Source of the DNA: Escherichia coli
GTDB taxonomy: Bacteria > Pseudomonadota > Gammaproteobacteria > Enterobacterales > Enterobacteriaceae
Strand: one strand, 5' to 3'
DNA length: 64,000 nt
Assembly (NCBI RefSeq): GCF_011045215.1
Contig: NZ_CP049201.1
Part shown: in pieces, positions 23,177-61,457 of the stretch
Layout of the letters: the number at the start of each line of letters is the position of its first letter
Position numbering within the stretch: position 1 is the first letter of the stretch
Position numbers and translations under genes: made by a program
Notes under the pieces: generated by a model
What the model was told of the DNA's origin: nothing
Database searches by the model: none
What the model saw: the letters and a program-made list of their open reading frames with translations, nothing else

Positions 23177-24225
23177 GGTTTTTATTGGGCGTGCTGATGC
23201 TGATGATCTCCGGCTCAGCGCTGGCGACCATCGATGTGTTGCAGTTTAAAGATGAAGCACAGGAACAACAGTTCCGTCAGCTCACTGAAGAACTGCGTTG
23301 CCCGAAATGCCAGAACAACAGCATTGCCGATTCCAACTCGATGATTGCCACCGACCTGCGCCAGAAAGTGTATGAACTGATGCAGGAAGGTAAAAGTAAA
23401 AAAGAGATTGTCGATTATATGGTGGCGCGTTACGGCAACTTCGTCACTTACGATCCGCCGTTAACGCCGCTGACCGTGCTGCTGTGGGTGCTTCCGGTAG
23501 TGGCTATTGGCATTGGCGGTTGGGTCATATACGCCCGCTCGCGGCGTCGGGTACGCGTGGTACCGGAAGCGTTTCCTGAACAAAGCGTGCCGGAAGGTAA
23601 GCGTGCCGGATATGTTGTTTATCTGCCGGGTATTTTGGTGGCGTTAATTGTAGCTGGCGTCAGCTACTACCAGACTGGCAATTATCAGCAGGTGAAAATC
23701 TGGCAGCAGGCCACGGCACAGGCTCCGGTGTTACTGGACAGGGCGCTGGATCCGAAAGCCGATCCGCTCAACGAAGAAGAGATGTCGCGCCTTGCGCTGG
23801 GGATGCGTACTCAACTGCAAAAAAATCCGGGAGATATAGAAGGTTGGATTATGTTGGGCCGCGTTGGCATGGCGCTGGGTAACGCCAGTATCGCCACCGA
23901 TGCATACGCTACTGCGTATCGCCTCGATCCGAAAAACAGCGATGCCGCACTGGGTTATGCTGAAGCGTTGACACGTTCATCTGATCCCAACGACAACCGC
24001 CTCGGCGGCGAACTGCTGCGCCAGTTGGTGAGAACGGACCATAGCAATATTCGTGTGTTAAGCATGTATGCGTTTAATGCCTTTGAGCAGCAGCGATTTG
24101 GCGAAGCCGTTGCCGCGTGGGAGATGATGTTGAAACTCTTACCTGCCAACGATACTCGCCGTGCGGTGATTGAACGTAGTATCGCGCAGGCGATGCAACA
24201 TTTGTCGCCGCAGGAGAGTAAATAA
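23173..24225 (+). CDS. ccmH: cytochrome c maturation protein CcmH (fused CcmH/CcmI type)
   Basis: 350-aa ORF with LRCPKC motif and C-terminal TPR-like region. Confidence 0.93.
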   Translation: MRFLLGVLMLMISGSALATIDVLQFKDEAQEQQFRQLTEELRCPKCQNNSIADSNSMIATDLRQKVYELMQEGKSKKEIVDYMVARYGNFVTYDPPLTPLTVLLWVLPVVAIGIGGWVIYARSRRRVRVVPEAFPEQSVPEGKRAGYVVYLPGILVALIVAGVSYYQTGNYQQVKIWQQATAQAPVLLDRALDPKADPLNEEEMSRLALGMRTQLQKNPGDIEGWIMLGRVGMALGNASIATDAYATAYRLDPKNSDAALGYAEALTRSSDPNDNRLGGELLRQLVRTDHSNIRVLSMYAFNAFEQQRFGEAVAAWEMMLKLLPANDTRRAVIERSIAQAMQHLSPQESK

Positions 24226-53491: not shown

Positions 53492-53504
53492 TAAAAGGTG
53501 TGTT

Positions 53505-53529
53505 ACAGGGCAGAAATTTACTGCCCTGT
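53505..53529 (+). terminator. hairpin immediately downstream of fruA (weak terminator)
   Basis: ACAGGGCAG-aaattta-CTGCCCTGT; poor U-tract. Confidence 0.45.
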
Positions 53530-53647
53530 ATCATTGGATGAGCGCAAAGAGAATGACCGGTTTGTGAATGTAATTTTATGAATTTAAATGGTTTTATCTT
53601 TCAGTAGAAACCTGAAACGTTCATCAAACACTAAGGTTATTTCCTCA

Positions 53648-53674
53648 AGGGCAGATTCTTTTCTGCCCTTTTTT
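53648..53674 (+). terminator. intrinsic terminator downstream of fruA
   Basis: AGGGCAGA-ttctttt-CTGCCCT-TTTTT. Confidence 0.75.
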
Positions 53675-53914
53675 AGTGTTCATGTTCTGTGCATCCCGTC
53701 ACAAATTCCTCGCTTTTGTAATTCAGGCATTTAATCGCATTTTGTGAGCCTGCTCAAATCTGCCCGCTTTGCCTCTCTGGCGGCAATTTACTTTACGTAA
53801 AACATGCATACTATGAGCACATGTTTAAATATGAACACATGTTTAAACCGTCTTTGCAGTATCTATATCCTTGTGGATTGACAGGGTTGGTAATTTTTTA
53901 CCAGAGGACGTGCT

Positions 53915-54856
53915 ATGCGCGAAAAGGATTATGTCGTAATTATAGGTTCGGCGAATATTGATGTCGCCGGATATTCACATGAATCATTAAATTATGCGGA
54001 TTCAAATCCAGGTAAAATAAAATTTACGCCTGGTGGAGTAGGGCGAAATATTGCACAAAATCTGGCGTTGCTGGGTAACAAAGCCTGGCTACTGAGCGCA
54101 GTAGGCAGTGATTTTTATGGCCAATCGCTGCTAACGCAAACCAATCAATCTGGCGTTTATGTCGATAAATGCCTGATTATGCCGGGAGAAAATACGTCGA
54201 GCTATTTATCATTACTCGATAATACCGGTGAAATGCTGGTTGCTATAAATGACATGAATATTAGCAACGCTATTACAGCTGAATATCTCGCACAGCACCG
54301 TGAATTTATTCAGAGGGCAAAGGTCATTGTCGCGGACTGTAATATCAGTGAAGAGGCACTGGCATGGATTCTGGATAATGCCGCCAACGTACCCGTATTT
54401 GTCGATCCGGTTTCAGCGTGGAAATGTGTCAAAGTGCGCGACCGTCTAAATCAGATCCACACTCTGAAGCCAAACCGCCTTGAAGCGGAAACCCTGAGTG
54501 GGATAGCGCTGTCAGGGCGTGAAGATGTGGCAAAGGTTGCCGCCTGGTTCCATCAACATGGCCTGAACCGACTGGTATTGAGCATGGGCGGCGACGGCGT
54601 TTATTACAGTGATATCAGCGGTGAAAGTGGTTGGTCTGCGCCGATCAAAACCAATGTTATTAATGTTACCGGAGCGGGCGATGCCATGATGGCGGGACTT
54701 GCTTCGTGTTGGGTAGACGGAATGCCGTTTGCCGAATCTGTTCGTTTCGCACAGGGATGTTCGTCAATGGCGCTCTCCTGTGAATACACCAATAACCCCG
54801 ATTTATCGATTGCCAACGTTATATCGTTAGTGGAGAACGCAGAATGTCTGAATTAA
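53915..54856 (+). CDS. psuK: pseudouridine kinase PsuK (YeiC)
   Basis: 313-aa PfkB-family ORF (…TPGGVGRNIAQNLALLG…GAGDAMMAG…). Confidence 0.9.
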   Translation: MREKDYVVIIGSANIDVAGYSHESLNYADSNPGKIKFTPGGVGRNIAQNLALLGNKAWLLSAVGSDFYGQSLLTQTNQSGVYVDKCLIMPGENTSSYLSLLDNTGEMLVAINDMNISNAITAEYLAQHREFIQRAKVIVADCNISEEALAWILDNAANVPVFVDPVSAWKCVKVRDRLNQIHTLKPNRLEAETLSGIALSGREDVAKVAAWFHQHGLNRLVLSMGGDGVYYSDISGESGWSAPIKTNVINVTGAGDAMMAGLASCWVDGMPFAESVRFAQGCSSMALSCEYTNNPDLSIANVISLVENAECLN

Positions 54857-55782
54857 AAATTTCCCCTGAATTATTACAAATTTCCCCGGAAGTGCAGGAC
54901 GCTTTAAAAAACAAAAAACCGGTTGTGGCGCTGGAATCGACCATTATTTCTCACGGGATGCCGTTCCCACAAAATGCCCAGACCGCAATTGAAGTTGAAG
55001 AAACTATTCGTAAACAGGGCGCTGTACCTGCCACTATCGCCATTATTGGCGGCGTGATGAAAGTTGGTTTAAGCAAAGAAGAAATTGAATTACTGGGTCG
55101 TGAAGGGCATAACGTGACCAAAGTTAGTCGTCGCGATTTACCTTTTGTTGTTGCCGCCGGAAAAAATGGCGCAACCACTGTGGCTTCAACGATGATTATT
55201 GCGGCGCTTGCCGGAATTAAAGTATTTGCCACCGGGGGAATTGGTGGTGTGCATCGCGGGGCGGAACATACCTTCGATATTTCTGCCGATTTGCAAGAAC
55301 TGGCAAATACTAATGTCACCGTTGTTTGTGCCGGGGCGAAATCTATTCTCGATTTAGGATTAACCACTGAGTATTTAGAAACCTTCGGTGTGCCGTTAAT
55401 TGGCTATCAGACTAAAGCGCTGCCTGCGTTTTTCTGCCGTACCAGCCCGTTTGACGTCAGCATTCGTCTCGACAGCGCCAGTGAAATTGCCCGTGCAATG
55501 GCGGTGAAATGGCAAAGCGGGCTGAACGGTGGCCTCGTGGTAGCGAACCCGATCCCGGAACAGTTTGCGATGCCAGAACACACTATCAATGCGGCGATCG
55601 ATCAGGCGGTAGCTGAAGCTGAAGCGCAGGGTGTTATTGGTAAAGAAAGTACGCCATTCCTGCTGGCGCGCGTTGCTGAACTGACCGGCGGTGACAGCCT
55701 GAAATCCAACATTCAACTGGTGTTCAACAACGCCATTCTGGCGAGTGAAATTGCCAAAGAATACCAGCGTCTCGCGGGTTAA
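54844..55782 (+). CDS. psuG: pseudouridine-5'-phosphate glycosidase PsuG (YeiN)
   Basis: 312-aa ORF overlapping the psuK 3' end; indigoidine-synthase-A-like family. Confidence 0.9.
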   Translation: MSELKISPELLQISPEVQDALKNKKPVVALESTIISHGMPFPQNAQTAIEVEETIRKQGAVPATIAIIGGVMKVGLSKEEIELLGREGHNVTKVSRRDLPFVVAAGKNGATTVASTMIIAALAGIKVFATGGIGGVHRGAEHTFDISADLQELANTNVTVVCAGAKSILDLGLTTEYLETFGVPLIGYQTKALPAFFCRTSPFDVSIRLDSASEIARAMAVKWQSGLNGGLVVANPIPEQFAMPEHTINAAIDQAVAEAEAQGVIGKESTPFLLARVAELTGGDSLKSNIQLVFNNAILASEIAKEYQRLAG

Positions 55783-55875: not shown

Positions 55876-57126
55876 ATGGACATAATGAGAAGTGTTGTGG
55901 GGATGGTGGTGTTACTGGCAATAGCATTTCTGTTGTCGGTAAATAAAAAGAGCATCAGTTTGCGCACGGTTGGAGCCGCACTGCTGCTGCAAATCGCTAT
56001 TGGTGGCATCATGCTCTATTTTCCGCCGGGAAAATGGGCTGTAGAACAGGCGGCATTAGGCGTTCATAAAGTGATGTCTTACAGTGATGCCGGTAGCGCC
56101 TTCATTTTTGGTTCGCTGGTCGGGCCGAAAATGGATGTCCTCTTTGACGGTGCGGGTTTTATCTTCGCCTTTCGCGTACTCCCGGCGATTATCTTCGCCA
56201 CTGCGCTCATTAGTCTGCTGTACTACATTGGCGTGATGGGGCTGCTGATTCGCATCCTTGGCAGCATTTTCCAGAAAGCCCTCAACATCAGCAAAATCGA
56301 ATCTTTTGTTGCGGTTACCACTATTTTCCTCGGGCAAAATGAGATCCCGGCGATCGTTAAACCGTTTATCGATCGCATGAATCGCAACGAGTTGTTTACC
56401 GCAATTTGTAGCGGGATGGCGTCCATTGCGGGTTCGATGATGATTGGTTATGCCGGAATGGGCGTACCAATTGACTACCTGTTGGCGGCATCGCTGATGG
56501 CGATCCCCGGCGGTATTTTGTTTGCACGTATTCTTAGTCCGGCAACCGAGCCTTCGCAGGTCACATTTGAAAATCTGTCGTTCAGTGAAACGCCGCCAAA
56601 AAGCTTTATCGAAGCGGCGGCGAGCGGTGCGATGACCGGGTTGAAAATCGCCGCCGGTGTGGCGACGGTGGTAATGGCGTTTGTCGCAATTATTGCGCTG
56701 ATTAATGGCATTATCGGCGGAATTGGCGGCTGGTTTGGTTTTACCAATGCTTCTCTGGAAAGTATTTTTGGCTATGTGCTGGCACCGCTGGCGTGGATCA
56801 TGGGTGTGGACTGGAGTGATGCCAACCTTGCGGGTAGCCTGATTGGGCAGAAACTGGCGATTAACGAATTCGTCGCTTACCTGAGTTTCTCCCCATACCT
56901 GCAAACGGGCGGTACGCTGGAAGTGAAAACCATTGCGATTATCTCCTTTGCGCTTTGTGGTTTTGCTAACTTTGGTTCTATCGGTGTTGTCGTTGGGGCA
57001 TTTTCGGCTATTTCGCCAAAACGTGCACCGGAAATCGCTCAGCTTGGTTTACGGGCGCTGGCAGCAGCAACGCTTTCCAACCTGATGAGCGCGACCATTG
57101 CCGGGTTCTTTATTGGTTTAGCTTGA
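55876..57126 (+). CDS. psuT: NupC-family nucleoside transporter PsuT (YeiM)
   Basis: 416-aa polytopic ORF; paralogue of nupX at 59063. Confidence 0.9.
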   Translation: MDIMRSVVGMVVLLAIAFLLSVNKKSISLRTVGAALLLQIAIGGIMLYFPPGKWAVEQAALGVHKVMSYSDAGSAFIFGSLVGPKMDVLFDGAGFIFAFRVLPAIIFATALISLLYYIGVMGLLIRILGSIFQKALNISKIESFVAVTTIFLGQNEIPAIVKPFIDRMNRNELFTAICSGMASIAGSMMIGYAGMGVPIDYLLAASLMAIPGGILFARILSPATEPSQVTFENLSFSETPPKSFIEAAASGAMTGLKIAAGVATVVMAFVAIIALINGIIGGIGGWFGFTNASLESIFGYVLAPLAWIMGVDWSDANLAGSLIGQKLAINEFVAYLSFSPYLQTGGTLEVKTIAIISFALCGFANFGSIGVVVGAFSAISPKRAPEIAQLGLRALAAATLSNLMSATIAGFFIGLA

Positions 57127-57193: not shown

Positions 57194-57853
57194 TTACTGC
57201 ATCATCCCGGAGAATTTATTCTCCGGGTCCATCTCCAGCGCCAGCCCTGACAACTGCTTTCTGTTTTTAATTAGATATCCTTTCTTGCTTTTAATTAATA
57301 AACCGTCGTGAATGAATTGCGCAAGAACATATAAAAGATGTCGATAAGAAACGCCTAAATACTCTGCCGCTTGCGTATGCTTTTCGTGATAAAGATCACC
57401 TTCTTGTGAGAGTAATATAAATGCTGCCAGGCGATTCACTAACGGAAATGATTGATTCTGAGTTAAAGAAACAATATTACGATAATTTTTATGACTTAAG
57501 GTGACGCAAAGTTTTCGTAAAAATAGGGTATCGTTTAATAACAGCGGACGGTAATGTTTCATAGGGAGCGCAAGGCACCAACACTCTTCAATCGCCTGTA
57601 CTGCACGTGGTTCATGGTCTTTATCGATTAACTCAATCTCGCCAATAAAACAGGGGGCGGCAAAGAAATCGATCAGCGACACGCGACCATTAGCTAGCGT
57701 GGCGTAAAGCCTGGCGCGGCCTCGCGTCAGGTAAAACAGCCAGGACGGCTGTTGCCCTTCCTGCACAATGTAGTCACGCGCTAAAAAATGAAACAGCCGC
57801 GTATCGGCTGAAACATCCGTTAAAAAGCAATCCTTAAACGCGGATTCACTCAT
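57194..57853 (-). CDS. yeiL: CRP/FNR-family transcriptional regulator YeiL
   Basis: 219 aa from the ATG at 57851-57853 ([24 protein letters not shown]…); cNMP-binding-like domain and C-terminal HTH. Confidence 0.88.
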
Positions 57854-58021
57854 CAATTGCAGCTTAAGATCATTATTGTGGATTTCTTTCACGATGTTTA
57901 TCCGCTATGAGATTTCTCATATTTAGCATACGTACGCTGTTGTTAAGATTCAATCATCGGCCCGGTCGAATTTTCTTTGCTGTAGAAAAAATAACGCAAC
58001 TGGAAACAGAGGAAATAAACA

Positions 58022-58963
58022 ATGGAAAAGAGAAAAATTATTCTGGATTGTGATCCGGGTCATGATGATGCTATTGCAATGATGATGGCAGCGAAACATC
58101 CGGCAATAGATTTATTAGGCATCACTATTGTAGCGGGTAATCAGACGCTTGATAAAACATTAATTAATGGCCTGAATGTTTGCCAGAAACTGGAGATTAA
58201 TGTTCCGGTTTATGCGGGGATGCCGCAGCCCATTATGCGTCAACAAATCGTTGCCGATAATATTCACGGTGAAACCGGACTGGATGGCCCGGTATTCGAG
58301 CCGCTGACCCGCCAGGCAGAAAGCACTCATGCGGTGAAATACATCATTGATACCCTGATGGCAAGCGATGGCGATATCACTCTGGTGCCGGTTGGTCCGC
58401 TTTCAAATATCGCGGTGGCAATGCGTATGCAACCCGCGATCCTGCCCAAAATCCGTGAAATTGTGCTAATGGGCGGCGCTTACGGTACAGGCAACTTCAC
58501 GCCATCTGCCGAGTTCAACATCTTTGCTGACCCGGAAGCCGCACGCGTGGTGTTCACCTCTGGCGTTCCATTAGTGATGATGGGCCTCGATCTTACCAAC
58601 CAGACCGTTTGCACCCCGGACGTAATTGCTCGGATGGAAAGGGCAGGCGGCCCTGCCGGAGAGCTGTTCAGCGACATCATGAACTTCACTCTCAAAACGC
58701 AGTTCGAAAACTACGGCCTGGCTGGCGGCCCGGTGCACGACGCCACCTGCATCGGTTATCTGATTAACCCTGATGGCATTAAAACCCAGGAGATGTACGT
58801 CGAAGTGGACGTCAACAGTGGCCCTTGTTATGGGCGTACCGTCTGCGACGAGCTGGGCGTTCTTGGCAAGCCCGCTAATACCAAAGTCGGCATCACTATT
58901 GATACCGACTGGTTCTGGGGCTTAGTCGAAGAGTGCGTGCGCGGCTACATCAAAACCCATTAA
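58022..58963 (+). CDS. rihB: pyrimidine-specific ribonucleoside hydrolase RihB (YeiK)
   Basis: 313-aa ORF with nucleoside hydrolase N-terminal DCDPGHDD motif. Confidence 0.93.
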
Positions 58964-59062
58964 GTGTTGATAACAAGCCGGGCCGGTATCGCAAGATGCA
59001 GGCCTGGCTATTTCTGATGGGCAGAAAGCCGTCGCCCAATATGACATGAAGAGATAATCACT

Positions 59063-60313
59063 ATGGATGTCATGAGAAGTGTTCTGGGAATGGTGGTATT
59101 GCTGACGATTGCGTTTTTACTGTCAGTAAACAAGAAGAAGATCAGCCTGCGTACCGTTGGCGCGGCGTTAGTGTTACAGGTCGTGATTGGCGGCATTATG
59201 CTTTGGTTACCGCCAGGGCGTTGGGTCGCTGAAAAAGTCGCTTTTGGCGTGCATAAAGTGATGGCGTACAGCGACGCGGGTAGCGCATTTATCTTCGGTT
59301 CTCTGGTCGGACCGAAAATGGACACCTTATTTGATGGCGCAGGATTTATCTTTGGTTTCAGAGTATTACCGGCAATTATCTTCGTCACCGCGCTGGTGAG
59401 TATTCTCTATTACATCGGTGTGATGGGGATCTTAATTCGCATTCTCGGCGGTATCTTCCAGAAAGCATTAAATATCAGCAAGATCGAGTCATTCGTCGCG
59501 GTCACTACCATTTTCCTCGGGCAAAACGAAATTCCGGCAATCGTCAAACCCTTTATCGATCGGCTGAATCGCAATGAATTATTTACAGCGATTTGTAGTG
59601 GCATGGCCTCAATTGCCGGTTCGACAATGATTGGTTACGCCGCACTGGGCGTACCTGTGGAATATTTGCTGGCGGCATCGTTAATGGCGATCCCAGGCGG
59701 GATCTTGTTTGCCCGCCTGTTAAGCCCGGCTACGGAATCTTCGCAGGTTTCTTTTAATAACCTCTCTTTCACCGAAACACCGCCAAAAAGCATTATTGAA
59801 GCCGCCGCGACAGGGGCAATGACCGGGCTGAAAATCGCTGCGGGTGTGGCAACAGTGGTGATGGCATTTGTTGCCATCATTGCGTTAATTAACGGTATTA
59901 TCGGCGGCGTTGGCGGCTGGTTTGGTTTTGAACATGCCTCGCTGGAGTCCATTTTAGGTTATCTGCTGGCCCCACTGGCGTGGGTAATGGGTGTTGACTG
60001 GACTGATGCGAATCTTGCCGGGAGTTTGATTGGACAGAAACTGGCAATAAATGAATTTGTCGCTTATCTCAATTTCTCACCCTATCTGCAAACGGCTGGC
60101 ACTCTGGATGCTAAAACCGTGGCGATTATTTCCTTCGCGTTGTGCGGTTTCGCTAACTTTGGTTCTATCGGGGTGGTGGTGGGGGCGTTTTCTGCGGTTG
60201 CGCCACACCGTGCGCCGGAAATCGCCCAGCTTGGTTTACGCGCGCTGGCGGCGGCGACACTTTCTAACCTGATGAGTGCCACCATTGCCGGGTTCTTTAT
60301 TGGTTTAGCGTAG
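59063..60313 (+). CDS. nupX: NupC-family nucleoside transporter NupX (YeiJ)
   Basis: 416-aa ORF, highly similar along its length to psuT. Confidence 0.9.
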   Translation: MDVMRSVLGMVVLLTIAFLLSVNKKKISLRTVGAALVLQVVIGGIMLWLPPGRWVAEKVAFGVHKVMAYSDAGSAFIFGSLVGPKMDTLFDGAGFIFGFRVLPAIIFVTALVSILYYIGVMGILIRILGGIFQKALNISKIESFVAVTTIFLGQNEIPAIVKPFIDRLNRNELFTAICSGMASIAGSTMIGYAALGVPVEYLLAASLMAIPGGILFARLLSPATESSQVSFNNLSFTETPPKSIIEAAATGAMTGLKIAAGVATVVMAFVAIIALINGIIGGVGGWFGFEHASLESILGYLLAPLAWVMGVDWTDANLAGSLIGQKLAINEFVAYLNFSPYLQTAGTLDAKTVAIISFALCGFANFGSIGVVVGAFSAVAPHRAPEIAQLGLRALAAATLSNLMSATIAGFFIGLA

Positions 60314-60368: not shown

Positions 60369-61457
60369 TTACACCATTGGCACTAATGAAAGCGCGTTAT
60401 CGGCAGACAGGGTAGGGTTGTTTAAGCTGCCGCTGGCGCGTGAAATTGCCGCGCAGGCCATCGCAAAACGGGCGCTGTCACGGAAATTGTTTCCTTCCAG
60501 AAAGCTATATACCAGGCCCGCCATAAAACCATCGTCAGCACCAAAACTGTCTACTGTCGTATGCGCTGGTGCGGTCAGCAAAAATTGTTCTCCATCCTTT
60601 TCGCTGCAATAAACTGACTCATCGGGCAAATAAACAAACAGTTGCTGAACACCTTGCTGATGCAACGCATTCACTGCAGCATTACGGTCAGCATCGCTGG
60701 TGATCGCCTGTCCCCATAAAATTTCCAGCTCCGGTAAAGTGGGTTTCAGGGTGTGAATATGCGCCAGCCAGTGTTTGATTTTGCCCGCTTTGAATTCTGA
60801 AACGGTATCGACAAACACCGGGATCTCACCAGCGAGGGTAAAGACCCATTCCAGCGCCTCGGCTGTCAGGTTGCAATCAGCCAGTACCACGCCCGCATGA
60901 CGAAGTAAATCGCGCGACCCGTTCAATAATTGCGGCGATAACTGTTCCAGCAGATGGGTATCGTTAATCGCCAACACGGTTTCATCGTCTCGATTGGCAA
61001 TTGCCAGATACGTCGATGTGCTTTGGCCATGTAAACGAACGCAGCCGGAGACATTCACGCCGGCGCGGCGCGTTTCTTCCAGGAGCATTTCGCCATAAAA
61101 GTCATCGCCAATCACTGAAAGCAAATGGACGTCACGGCCTAACAGCGCCAGATTGTGGGCGATGTTGCGTCCCACGCCGCCCGCTGAGCAATGAATTGTA
61201 CCGGGATGAGAAGCCGATTGCGGGTAACGGATATCCGCCATCCCGCGAATATCCATATTGATTGTCCCCACCACTACGCAGTATTCCTGCTCGGTGAGAA
61301 TGTAACCTTTGCCTTTAATCCGGCCTTTGCGCATTAAATCCATAATATGCGCCGCAACGCGCGAACGGCTGATTTGCAGCATGTCCGCAATTTCGTTCTG
61401 CTGAATCAGCGGGTTACGCCGTAAAATTGCAAGGATCTCCTTTTCCCGGTTATTCAT
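60369..61457 (-). CDS. yeiI: HTH-fused PfkB-family sugar/nucleoside kinase YeiI
   Basis: 362-aa ORF: N-terminal winged-HTH-like region (MNNREKEILAILRRNPLIQQNEIADMLQISRSRVAAHI…) fused to a ribokinase-like domain (…GGVGRNIAHNLALLG…). Confidence 0.88.
   Translation of the reverse strand: MNNREKEILAILRRNPLIQQNEIADMLQISRSRVAAHIMDLMRKGRIKGKGYILTEQEYCVVVGTINMDIRGMADIRYPQSASHPGTIHCSAGGVGRNIAHNLALLGRDVHLLSVIGDDFYGEMLLEETRRAGVNVSGCVRLHGQSTSTYLAIANRDDETVLAINDTHLLEQLSPQLLNGSRDLLRHAGVVLADCNLTAEALEWVFTLAGEIPVFVDTVSEFKAGKIKHWLAHIHTLKPTLPELEILWGQAITSDADRNAAVNALHQQGVQQLFVYLPDESVYCSEKDGEQFLLTAPAHTTVDSFGADDGFMAGLVYSFLEGNNFRDSARFAMACAAISRASGSLNNPTLSADNALSLVPMV

Follow-up and report, generated by a model that had tools for sequence, protein, structure and literature searches.

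A conserved two-dyad element at the psuKGT promoter of Escherichia coli is a candidate operator for the kinase-like protein YeiI

Introduction

Pseudouridine is the most abundant RNA modification, and the psuKGT operon is, to our knowledge, the only known bacterial route for its reuse. What controls the expression of this operon is the question raised by a short repeat in front of psuK in a 64,000-nucleotide stretch of the Escherichia coli genome (contig NZ_CP049201.1 of assembly GCF_011045215.1), which we refer to as the window. An initial annotation of the window noted that the 12-mer CACATGTTTAAA occurs twice upstream of psuK, considered it a plausible binding site, possibly for YeiL or YeiI, and stated that no regulator has been assigned to psuKGT. 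We likewise found none in the searchable literature, nor a paper that assigns a function to YeiI. From a comparison of sequences across genera, we consider it probable, with appreciable room for doubt, that the repeat belongs to a two-dyad operator over the start of psuKGT, which would be bound by YeiI and relieved by pseudouridine at a weak promoter assisted by CRP. The start site, the binding of YeiI, the repression and the effector are all parts of this proposal that we infer. The reading would make the repeat an operator of the classical kind, with a probable regulator from the uncharacterised family of proteins that join a winged helix-turn-helix (wHTH) domain to a PfkB domain.

Results

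Both copies of the 12-mer are exact and were located as previously described at 53818-53829 and 53836-53847 on the plus strand, corresponding to 97-86 and 79-68 nt upstream of the psuK ATG (53915). They lie inside the spacer between the end of fruA (53491) and psuK, which measures 423 bp (53492-53914). There is no third copy in the window, even when one mismatch is allowed. The count of two is by itself not significant, since at least two matches with at most one mismatch were obtained in 14 of 100 shuffles. The two 12-mers are parts of a longer tandem repeat (Table 1), the 18-nt unit of which has the form TATGA(G/A)CACATGTTTAAA. The psuK tandem is one of just two local direct repeats in the window with a length of at least 12 nt and a distance of at most 40 bp. 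The other one is AAGCGTGCCGGA, which occurs twice at 23583-23610, 16 bp from start to start.

The significance of the repeat becomes apparent from its conservation. We aligned 12 enteric psuK upstream regions, which were taken from Escherichia spp., E. albertii, Citrobacter spp., Buttiauxella spp. and a metagenome-assembled genome (MAG) labelled as Raoultella. A block with the pattern GARCA-YR-TGTTY-N6-GAACA-YR-TGYTY was kept in this alignment together with a -35 and a -10 hexamer, and the flanking leader had diverged. The same two-dyad block with centres 18 bp apart was also found in Enterobacter, and a second dyad 18-19 bp downstream of the first is additionally present in Pasteurella, Shewanella and Affinibrenneria. 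A perfect 12-bp dyad occurs in Buttiauxella, Enterobacter and Shewanella, and in Yersinia a perfect 20-bp palindrome, AACCAAACActTGTTTGGTT, is located upstream of the psu operon. The 36-bp tandem itself is identical in K-12, Escherichia sp. E1V33, E. whittamii and another E. coli.

Within E. coli, the fruA-psuK spacer of the window type was matched in 4232 of 5426 complete genomes, one of them at 100%, and the other allele, found in about 1200 genomes, has GAACATGTGTTTAAATCTGAACATGTGCTCTAA in place of the perfect repeat, as in Citrobacter. The two spacer alleles are very different overall; approximately 78% are of the window type and 22% are E. albertii-like, the latter with repetitive extragenic palindromic (REP)-like elements downstream of fruA and, in NZ_CP148423.1, with a psuK annotated as frameshifted. 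Since the perfect direct repeat is limited to one allele, the conserved feature is the array of half-sites. The direct repeat had originally been regarded as the binding unit, with internal symmetry in the cores CATG and TTTAAA; two inverted-repeat dyads fit the data better, and the relevant symmetry appears to be GARCA-NN-TGTTY. Conservation of the dyad array in front of psuK in Escherichia, Citrobacter, Buttiauxella and Enterobacter rules out an origin of the tandem by chance and, judged by this criterion, the block is a real, conserved cis-regulatory element of psuKGT, as the assumption of a binding site had implied. The repeat is most likely the E. coli form of a conserved putative two-dyad operator with the consensus AAACA-NN-TGTTT, the symmetry of which would suit a dimeric DNA-binding protein.

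The promoter, the CRP-type sites and the published adaptive mutation described below had escaped the initial annotation; they place the block at the predicted transcription start. With the conserved hexamers listed in Table 1, transcription of psuK is predicted to start at approximately 53820-53822, so that dyad 1 would be placed on +1 and dyad 2 at about +18. This placement rests on the conservation of the hexamers, on an up-mutation in the -35 element and on the spacing to a CRP-type site. The wild-type promoter scores 8 of 12 positions, which is below the threshold of 9/12 and explains why a consensus scan made no promoter call for psuK. A perfect TTGACA at 53878-83 was considered as an alternative -35 element and was rejected, as it has no usable -10 element at a distance of 16-18 bp and is specific to E. 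coli.

The up-mutation comes from evolution experiments in the literature. For K-12 kept in long-term stationary phase, a mutation described as 'psuK/fruA intergenic (-126/+297) A>C' was listed for three of four populations; during growth in the mouse gut, selection of an A>C exchange at position 2257444 of the reference used by the authors was seen in five of seven mice. The latter authors assigned the single-nucleotide polymorphism (SNP) to the psuK promoter region, stated that it changed growth and considered that such intergenic changes can alter psuK expression; in the available parts of both reports, the mutation is termed only intergenic or promoter-region. K-12 aligns to the window without insertions or deletions between the psuK ATG and -126, and therefore the mutation corresponds to T53789>G, which converts TTTACT to TTGACT on the psuK strand and would raise the promoter score to 9/12. 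To place the mouse-gut allele, the coordinates were calibrated on ten srlR and frlR mutations within coding sequence that are listed in the same tables. All ten amino-acid changes were reproduced by an offset of +1978 and by no other, and this offset moves 2257444 to position 2259422 of NC_000913.3, which is psuK -126. Thus, both laboratories found the same -35 up-mutation, and it is the only allele upstream of psuK that was selected repeatedly. Read on the predicted promoter, the adaptive SNP is an improvement of the -35 element of a weak psuK promoter.

A contribution of CRP is suggested by the upstream region. The sequence TGTGAGCCTGCTCAAA has a single mismatch to the CRP consensus TGTGA-N6-TCACA, and in 12 of 13 regions a CRP-like site with at most two mismatches was found 70-73 bp upstream of the centre of dyad 1, the distance being 60 bp in Pasteurella. 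Provided that transcription starts at dyad 1, as predicted, this spacing corresponds to the class I positions -71.5 and -61.5. In the enteric genera, a distal counterpart with one to three mismatches is located 52-55 bp upstream of the proximal site. The psuKGT promoter thus appears to be weak and CRP class I-dependent. The distance between the two CRP-type sites is 55 bp in the window allele and 52-54 bp in the other allele and the other genera, and a TTGCAA is situated between them in Buttiauxella and one Citrobacter. In Yersinia, Serratia, Photorhabdus, Xenorhabdus and Affinibrenneria, the dyad and its CRP site precede the first start codon by 250-285 bp, implying an unusually long leader in these five genera.

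Published proteomics data bear indirectly on the same question. PsuG and PsuK vary together with many CRP-activated proteins and were among the most reduced proteins, with log2 fold changes down to -6, in recA mutants of several clinical E. coli treated with ciprofloxacin (PMC11039860). Control by LexA and the SOS response, which the recA background might suggest, was rejected because reading of the region 53680-53915 revealed no E. coli-type LexA box (CTGT-N8-ACAG) near the psuK promoter. As the co-varying proteins are mostly CRP-activated, the CRP sites fit these data better than LexA does. The drop of PsuG and PsuK in recA mutants could be an effect of CRP or of the growth state, or could reflect pseudouridine released by RNA turnover. 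A GAAC-N4-GTTY within the block resembles only the LexA box of Gram-positive bacteria.

Which protein might bind the dyads is best approached through the neighbourhood of psu genes in other genera. Homologues of YeiI, the wHTH-PfkB protein encoded downstream of psuKGT in the window, are widespread, and in all nine loci that were fetched through them the wHTH-PfkB gene either adjoins psuG or is one gene away. It heads a wHTH-PfkB-psuG(-psuT) operon in Yersinia, Serratia, Pasteurella, Photorhabdus, Xenorhabdus and Shewanella, and no separate psuK is present within the fetched locus in any of these six cases. In Citrobacter, Buttiauxella and Enterobacter, psuKGT is directly followed by a convergent yeiI, with HTH_24 and PfkB domains, and by nfo. 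A dyad with at most one mismatch to AAACA-NN-TGTTT was detected upstream of the psu operon in 11 of 12 sampled gammaproteobacterial loci with a YeiI-like gene, whereas 1000 dinucleotide shuffles gave 0.67 such regions on average and never more than 4. Four psu operons with a PsuK devoid of the HTH and without a wHTH-PfkB gene within 6 kb on either side, among them loci of Aeromonas, a Pasteurellaceae MAG and a Bartonella sp., served as negative controls, and none of them contained the dyad (one-sided Fisher p ~0.003 for 11/12 versus 0/4). The mention of YeiI as a possible binder has thereby gained comparative support, and YeiI is most likely the protein that is predicted to bind the operator at psuK.

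The other protein mentioned in the initial annotation was YeiL, a member of the CRP/FNR family, the gene of which had been described as divergent from psuK. In the window, yeiL is convergent with psuT, and the segment yeiL-rihB-nupX (57194-60313) is missing between psuT and yeiI in the loci of Citrobacter, Buttiauxella and Enterobacter, which have kept the dyads. This suggests that the segment was inserted into an ancestral arrangement of psuKGT and yeiI-nfo. Both the gene order and the lack of yeiL at the psu locus of three genera with the site led us to reject YeiL as the binder, an assessment made for the psu locus of these genomes.

The domain composition of YeiI is compatible with a function in regulation. 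HTH_24 was detected in the YeiI orthologues of Citrobacter and Buttiauxella with E-values of 1.7e-11 to 1.8e-11, and both PF13412 (HTH_24) and PfkB are recorded for E. coli proteins with 98% identity to YeiI. The best match of YeiI in the PDB is the pseudouridine kinase 7vkp (E=8e-67), and the PDB holds no structure that includes an HTH of the YeiI type. Identity to PsuK amounts to 57-60% for the fused wHTH-PfkB proteins, with 45% in Shewanella, and to 38% for E. coli YeiI. The motifs NXXE and GAGD, of which the latter forms the anion hole, are catalytic hallmarks of the ribokinase/PfkB family. In YeiI they are changed to TXXE and GADD, and both changes were present in all 40 scorable proteins of the YeiI clade. 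NXXE together with GAGD was found in all 35 scorable proteins of a more distant clade. All operon-leading proteins that were sampled belong to this clade, and mixed cases did not occur. In pseudouridine kinase, Ser30, Asn143 and Lys170 were named as the residues that govern the affinity for pseudouridine and the induced closure of the enzyme (PMC9061257). The equivalents of these residues are invariant in seven of seven aligned proteins, including YeiI. A psuK mutant was reported to be unable to use pseudouridine, which indicates that YeiI is no substitute kinase. Taken from its sequence, YeiI looks like a sensor rather than an enzyme.

Discussion

The arrangement of the psuK promoter suggests a simple mechanism of control. 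The operator would begin directly after the -10 element and span the predicted start together with approximately the first 25 transcribed bases. One YeiI dimer on each dyad, over +1 and +18, would block RNA polymerase. The C-terminal, kinase-like domain of YeiI is a paralogue of pseudouridine kinase, and YeiI would leave the DNA once pseudouridine or its 5'-phosphate occupies this domain. The complex of cAMP and CRP at about -71 would then provide the activation that is needed by the poor -35 element.

Several observations weigh against this account. The repressor genes frlR, dgoR, srlR and glpR of other operons were hit by many loss-of-function alleles in the evolution experiments, whereas for psuK the -35 SNP is the only change reported, and yeiI does not appear in the main text of these papers. 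A simple dedicated repressor should offer many sites for inactivating mutations, unless its repression is already lifted by pseudouridine in the respective habitats. Selection of the -35 mutation alone would fit such a relief by pseudouridine in the gut and in stationary phase, where expression would then be limited by promoter strength only, and is also in line with a more complex role of YeiI. In E. coli, yeiI is located 3.2 kb beyond psuT, and no dyad was found near yeiI within the 64-kb window. A search of the window for further copies of the motif, including the yeiL-rihB spacer and the region upstream of nfo and yeiI, yielded none that was convincing, and a scan with the IUPAC pattern gave matches in coding regions only. 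The dyad in Serratia has two mismatches, the Enterobacter sequence has a poor -10 element at the aligned position, and the negative controls comprise four loci that were inspected over +/-6 kb.

The alternative that the dyads do form an operator where psuK transcription starts but serve another protein, such as YeiL, a regulator of the DeoR/GlpR type, a KdgR-like or some other factor, with YeiI acting elsewhere, appears unlikely to us. The central part of the block, TGTTY-N6-GAACA, resembles the sites of CRP-family proteins with their 5-N6-5 layout. Its C. werkmanii version is TGTTCGATATTGAACA, close to GlpR half-sites; the spacing of the KdgR box, AAACA-N-TGTTT, is one base off that of the psuK dyad. 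The silence of the evolution experiments on yeiI mutations would also be in line with another binder. However, the six central bases are variable, and Yersinia, Photorhabdus and Xenorhabdus contain only the N2-spaced dyad, so that this dyad has to be regarded as the conserved unit and a single central 5-N6-5 site of the CRP or GlpR kind was rejected. The absence of yeiL from dyad-bearing loci speaks against YeiL in particular. More generally, the wHTH of the PfkB protein is the only DNA-binding domain that is consistently linked to psu operons with the dyad, and the four loci without a wHTH-PfkB gene within 6 kb were also without the dyad. YeiI could furthermore bind the operator and act as a dual regulator, as a repressor that depends on a downstream metabolite as co-repressor, or with its main effect elsewhere, which we judge to be quite unlikely. 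In favour of such a role, the reports describe the -35 up-mutation alone and never the loss of a regulator under selection for higher psuK expression, and the protein of the fused lineages would be both enzyme and DNA binder, so that control might follow metabolic flux, as in the case of BirA. The predicted centring of the dyads on +1 and +18 is, on the other hand, typical for classical steric repression and incompatible with class I or class II activation, and the residues that contact pseudouridine are retained in YeiI.

An element that acts in the mRNA, either as a 5'-terminal stem-loop of the psuK transcript with an influence on its stability or translation, or as a short leader open reading frame (ORF), seems very unlikely. 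The repeat can form an 11-bp hairpin (53823-53848) in the E. coli leader, for which a z-score of -3.1 was obtained over 110 nt, and a hairpin of 9-12 bp is possible in most enteric versions. Such a potential for pairing is a necessary consequence of tandem palindromes, which are self-complementary. The register of the hairpin varies between alleles, and half of the structure is upstream of the predicted start. Three lineages, Pasteurella, Affinibrenneria and Enterobacter, have only a weak version with -3 to -5 kcal/mol. The sequence of the half-sites itself, beyond any pairing, is kept from Shewanella to Escherichia. Rfam returned chance matches below the threshold only. An ORF of eight codons that begins with ATG or GTG can be read in the enteric genera (MFKYEHMFK... 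in E. coli, MFxxEH(V/M)(L/F) followed by a stop in other genera), but no Shine-Dalgarno (SD) sequence precedes it, and in many genera translation would have to begin at a leaderless GTG. In E. coli the stop codon of this ORF has been lost, and Yersinia has no such ORF. It is hardly credible that the repeat arose recently by a neutral tandem duplication and has no function. The 17/18 identity of the units is indeed confined to one E. coli allele, but an array of two units, with 14 of 18 positions identical, is shared by the second E. coli allele and no fewer than five other genera. The motif occurs far more often than in shuffled sequences, and the conservation data already contradict neutrality.

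The proposed repression by YeiI with assistance by CRP has parallels in well-known systems. The lac promoter, with CRP at -61.5 and the LacI operator O1 at +11, similarly combines class I activation by CRP with an operator at the start site. The psuK promoter shares with it a weak -35 element and a CRP-type site one or more helical turns upstream, and the dyads would cover +1 to +25 of the predicted transcript; counted from the predicted start, the CRP-type site would be at -70.5/-71.5 at psuK and at about -60.5 in Pasteurella. The predicted logic would also be lac-like, with expression under carbon limitation and in the presence of the substrate. In contrast to lac, the candidate regulator at psuK is not a member of the LacI family, and two 12-bp dyads 18 bp apart take the place of one 21-bp site with distant auxiliary operators. 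The CytR/CRP and DeoR control of nucleoside genes (deo, cdd, udp, nupG, tsx) likewise concerns operons for nucleoside catabolism or transport, with tandem CRP-type sites 52-55 bp apart. Based on this likeness, anti-activation of the CytR type is conceivable at psuK. The psuK repeat is, however, located downstream of the -10 element and not between the CRP sites, and the latter would be at about -71 and -125 instead of -40.5 and -93.5.

With regard to the regulator, a close parallel is offered by the ROK repressors NagC and Mlc, which also consist of an N-terminal winged helix and a domain descended from sugar kinases that has lost catalytic motifs and still binds the sugar of the pathway, as YeiI would bind the nucleoside. 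NagC and Mlc repress catabolic and transport operons from palindromic operators, as is predicted for YeiI. The sensor fold of YeiI is PfkB/ribokinase and not ROK/ASKHA, and active-kinase relatives of YeiI with the same HTH head the very operon that they would regulate, which distinguishes YeiI from these two repressors. Enzyme and repressor are also united in one protein in BirA, NadR and the archaeal RbkR, a riboflavin kinase with a wHTH. The wHTH-PfkB proteins of Yersinia, Serratia, Pasteurella and Shewanella combine complete kinase motifs with being the only PsuK-like gene product of the fetched locus, and would thus be enzyme and autoregulator at the same time. They differ from BirA, NadR and RbkR in fold and ligand, and in E. 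coli the two functions are apparently split between PsuK and YeiI.

These considerations lead us to a tentative extension, for which belief and doubt are nearly balanced with doubt slightly ahead. The wHTH-PfkB proteins may represent an unrecognised family of pseudouridine-responsive regulators that, in most Gammaproteobacteria, would act as kinase and as autorepressor of psuG-psuT. In the lineage of Escherichia, Citrobacter and Enterobacter, a duplication could have separated the two tasks, with PsuK as the enzyme without HTH and YeiI as a pseudokinase repressor that kept the HTH and the ligand pocket, lost NXXE and GAGD and would act on the operator at 53812-53847.

As a regulatory element, the operator would be ordinary in kind. 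If the proposal is true, YeiI would be the first regulator for the psuKGT operon, and a testable function is thereby offered for an orphan gene of K-12. The psuK promoter is among the most reproducible targets of adaptation during mouse-gut colonisation and long starvation, and our analysis provides a mechanistic account of the adaptive SNP as a gain in the -35 element of a weak and apparently CRP-dependent promoter. With the dyad motif, predictions of pseudouridine regulons can be made for other Gammaproteobacteria. A repressor and operator pair that responds to pseudouridine, if it exists as proposed, could additionally serve as a biosensor in strains that produce pseudouridine for the manufacture of mRNA.

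Further features of the locus

The coordinates of the promoter elements, the candidate operator and the genes discussed above are compiled in Table 1, together with a small hairpin in front of the psuK start codon. This hairpin has the form GGCAA..TTGCC in other genera, so that one compensatory pair lends it weak covariation support, and it is probably a separate, post-transcriptional layer of control. The small RNA RprA was reported as a partner of the psuK mRNA by RIL-seq and TRIC-seq. The best predicted pairing of RprA covers 53889-53919, that is, the small hairpin, the SD sequence and the ATG; RprA was consequently rejected as a partner of the repeat.

Table 1. Features of the psuK region and neighbouring genes in the window
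Feature	Position	Strand	Description
Distal CRP-like site	53688-53703 (centre 53695.5)		TGTGC-atcccg-TCACA; one mismatch to TGTGA-N6-TCACA
Proximal CRP-like site	53743-53758 (centre 53750.5)		TGTGA-gcctgc-TCAAA; one mismatch; at about -70.5/-71.5 from the predicted start
psuK -35 element	53787-53792	+	TTTACT; TTTACW invariant in 12 enteric sequences
psuK -10 element	53809-53814	+	TACTAT; 16-bp spacer from -35; TAYYAT kept in 12 enteric sequences
18-nt tandem repeat (two units)	53812-53847	+	Head-to-tail TATGAGCACATGTTTAAA / TATGAACACATGTTTAAA, 17/18 identical; contains both 12-mers
Candidate operator dyad 1	53815-53826 (centre 53820.5)		GAGCA-CA-TGTTT; over the predicted start; columns A.CA..TGTT invariant across genera
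Candidate operator dyad 2	53833-53844 (centre 53838.5, about +18)		GAACA-CA-TGTTT; GAACA..TG.T invariant across genera
Small hairpin, then SD sequence	53889-53908	+	GGTAA-TTTT-TTACC, then AGAGGA; GGYAA..TTRCC in all enteric sequences
psuK	53915-54856	+	ORF; NCBIfam pseudouridine kinase equivalog, 714 bits
psuG	54844-55782	+	ORF, RefSeq annotation
psuT	55876-57126	+	ORF, RefSeq annotation
yeiL	57194-57892	-	Convergent with psuT; 3.3 kb from the repeat
yeiI	60369-61457	-	wHTH (HTH_24) and PfkB-like; NCBIfam NF007416, 806 bits, named 'sugar kinase'

Two hairpins downstream of fruA (53505-53529 and 53647-53676) have a common GGGCAGA...TCTGCCC core, and a T-run follows only the second one, so that fruBKA seems to have a 3' untranslated region of about 180 nt. 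This region contains a Cra-like half-palindrome, CTGAAACGTTCA, at approximately 53612-23, which is different in K-12.

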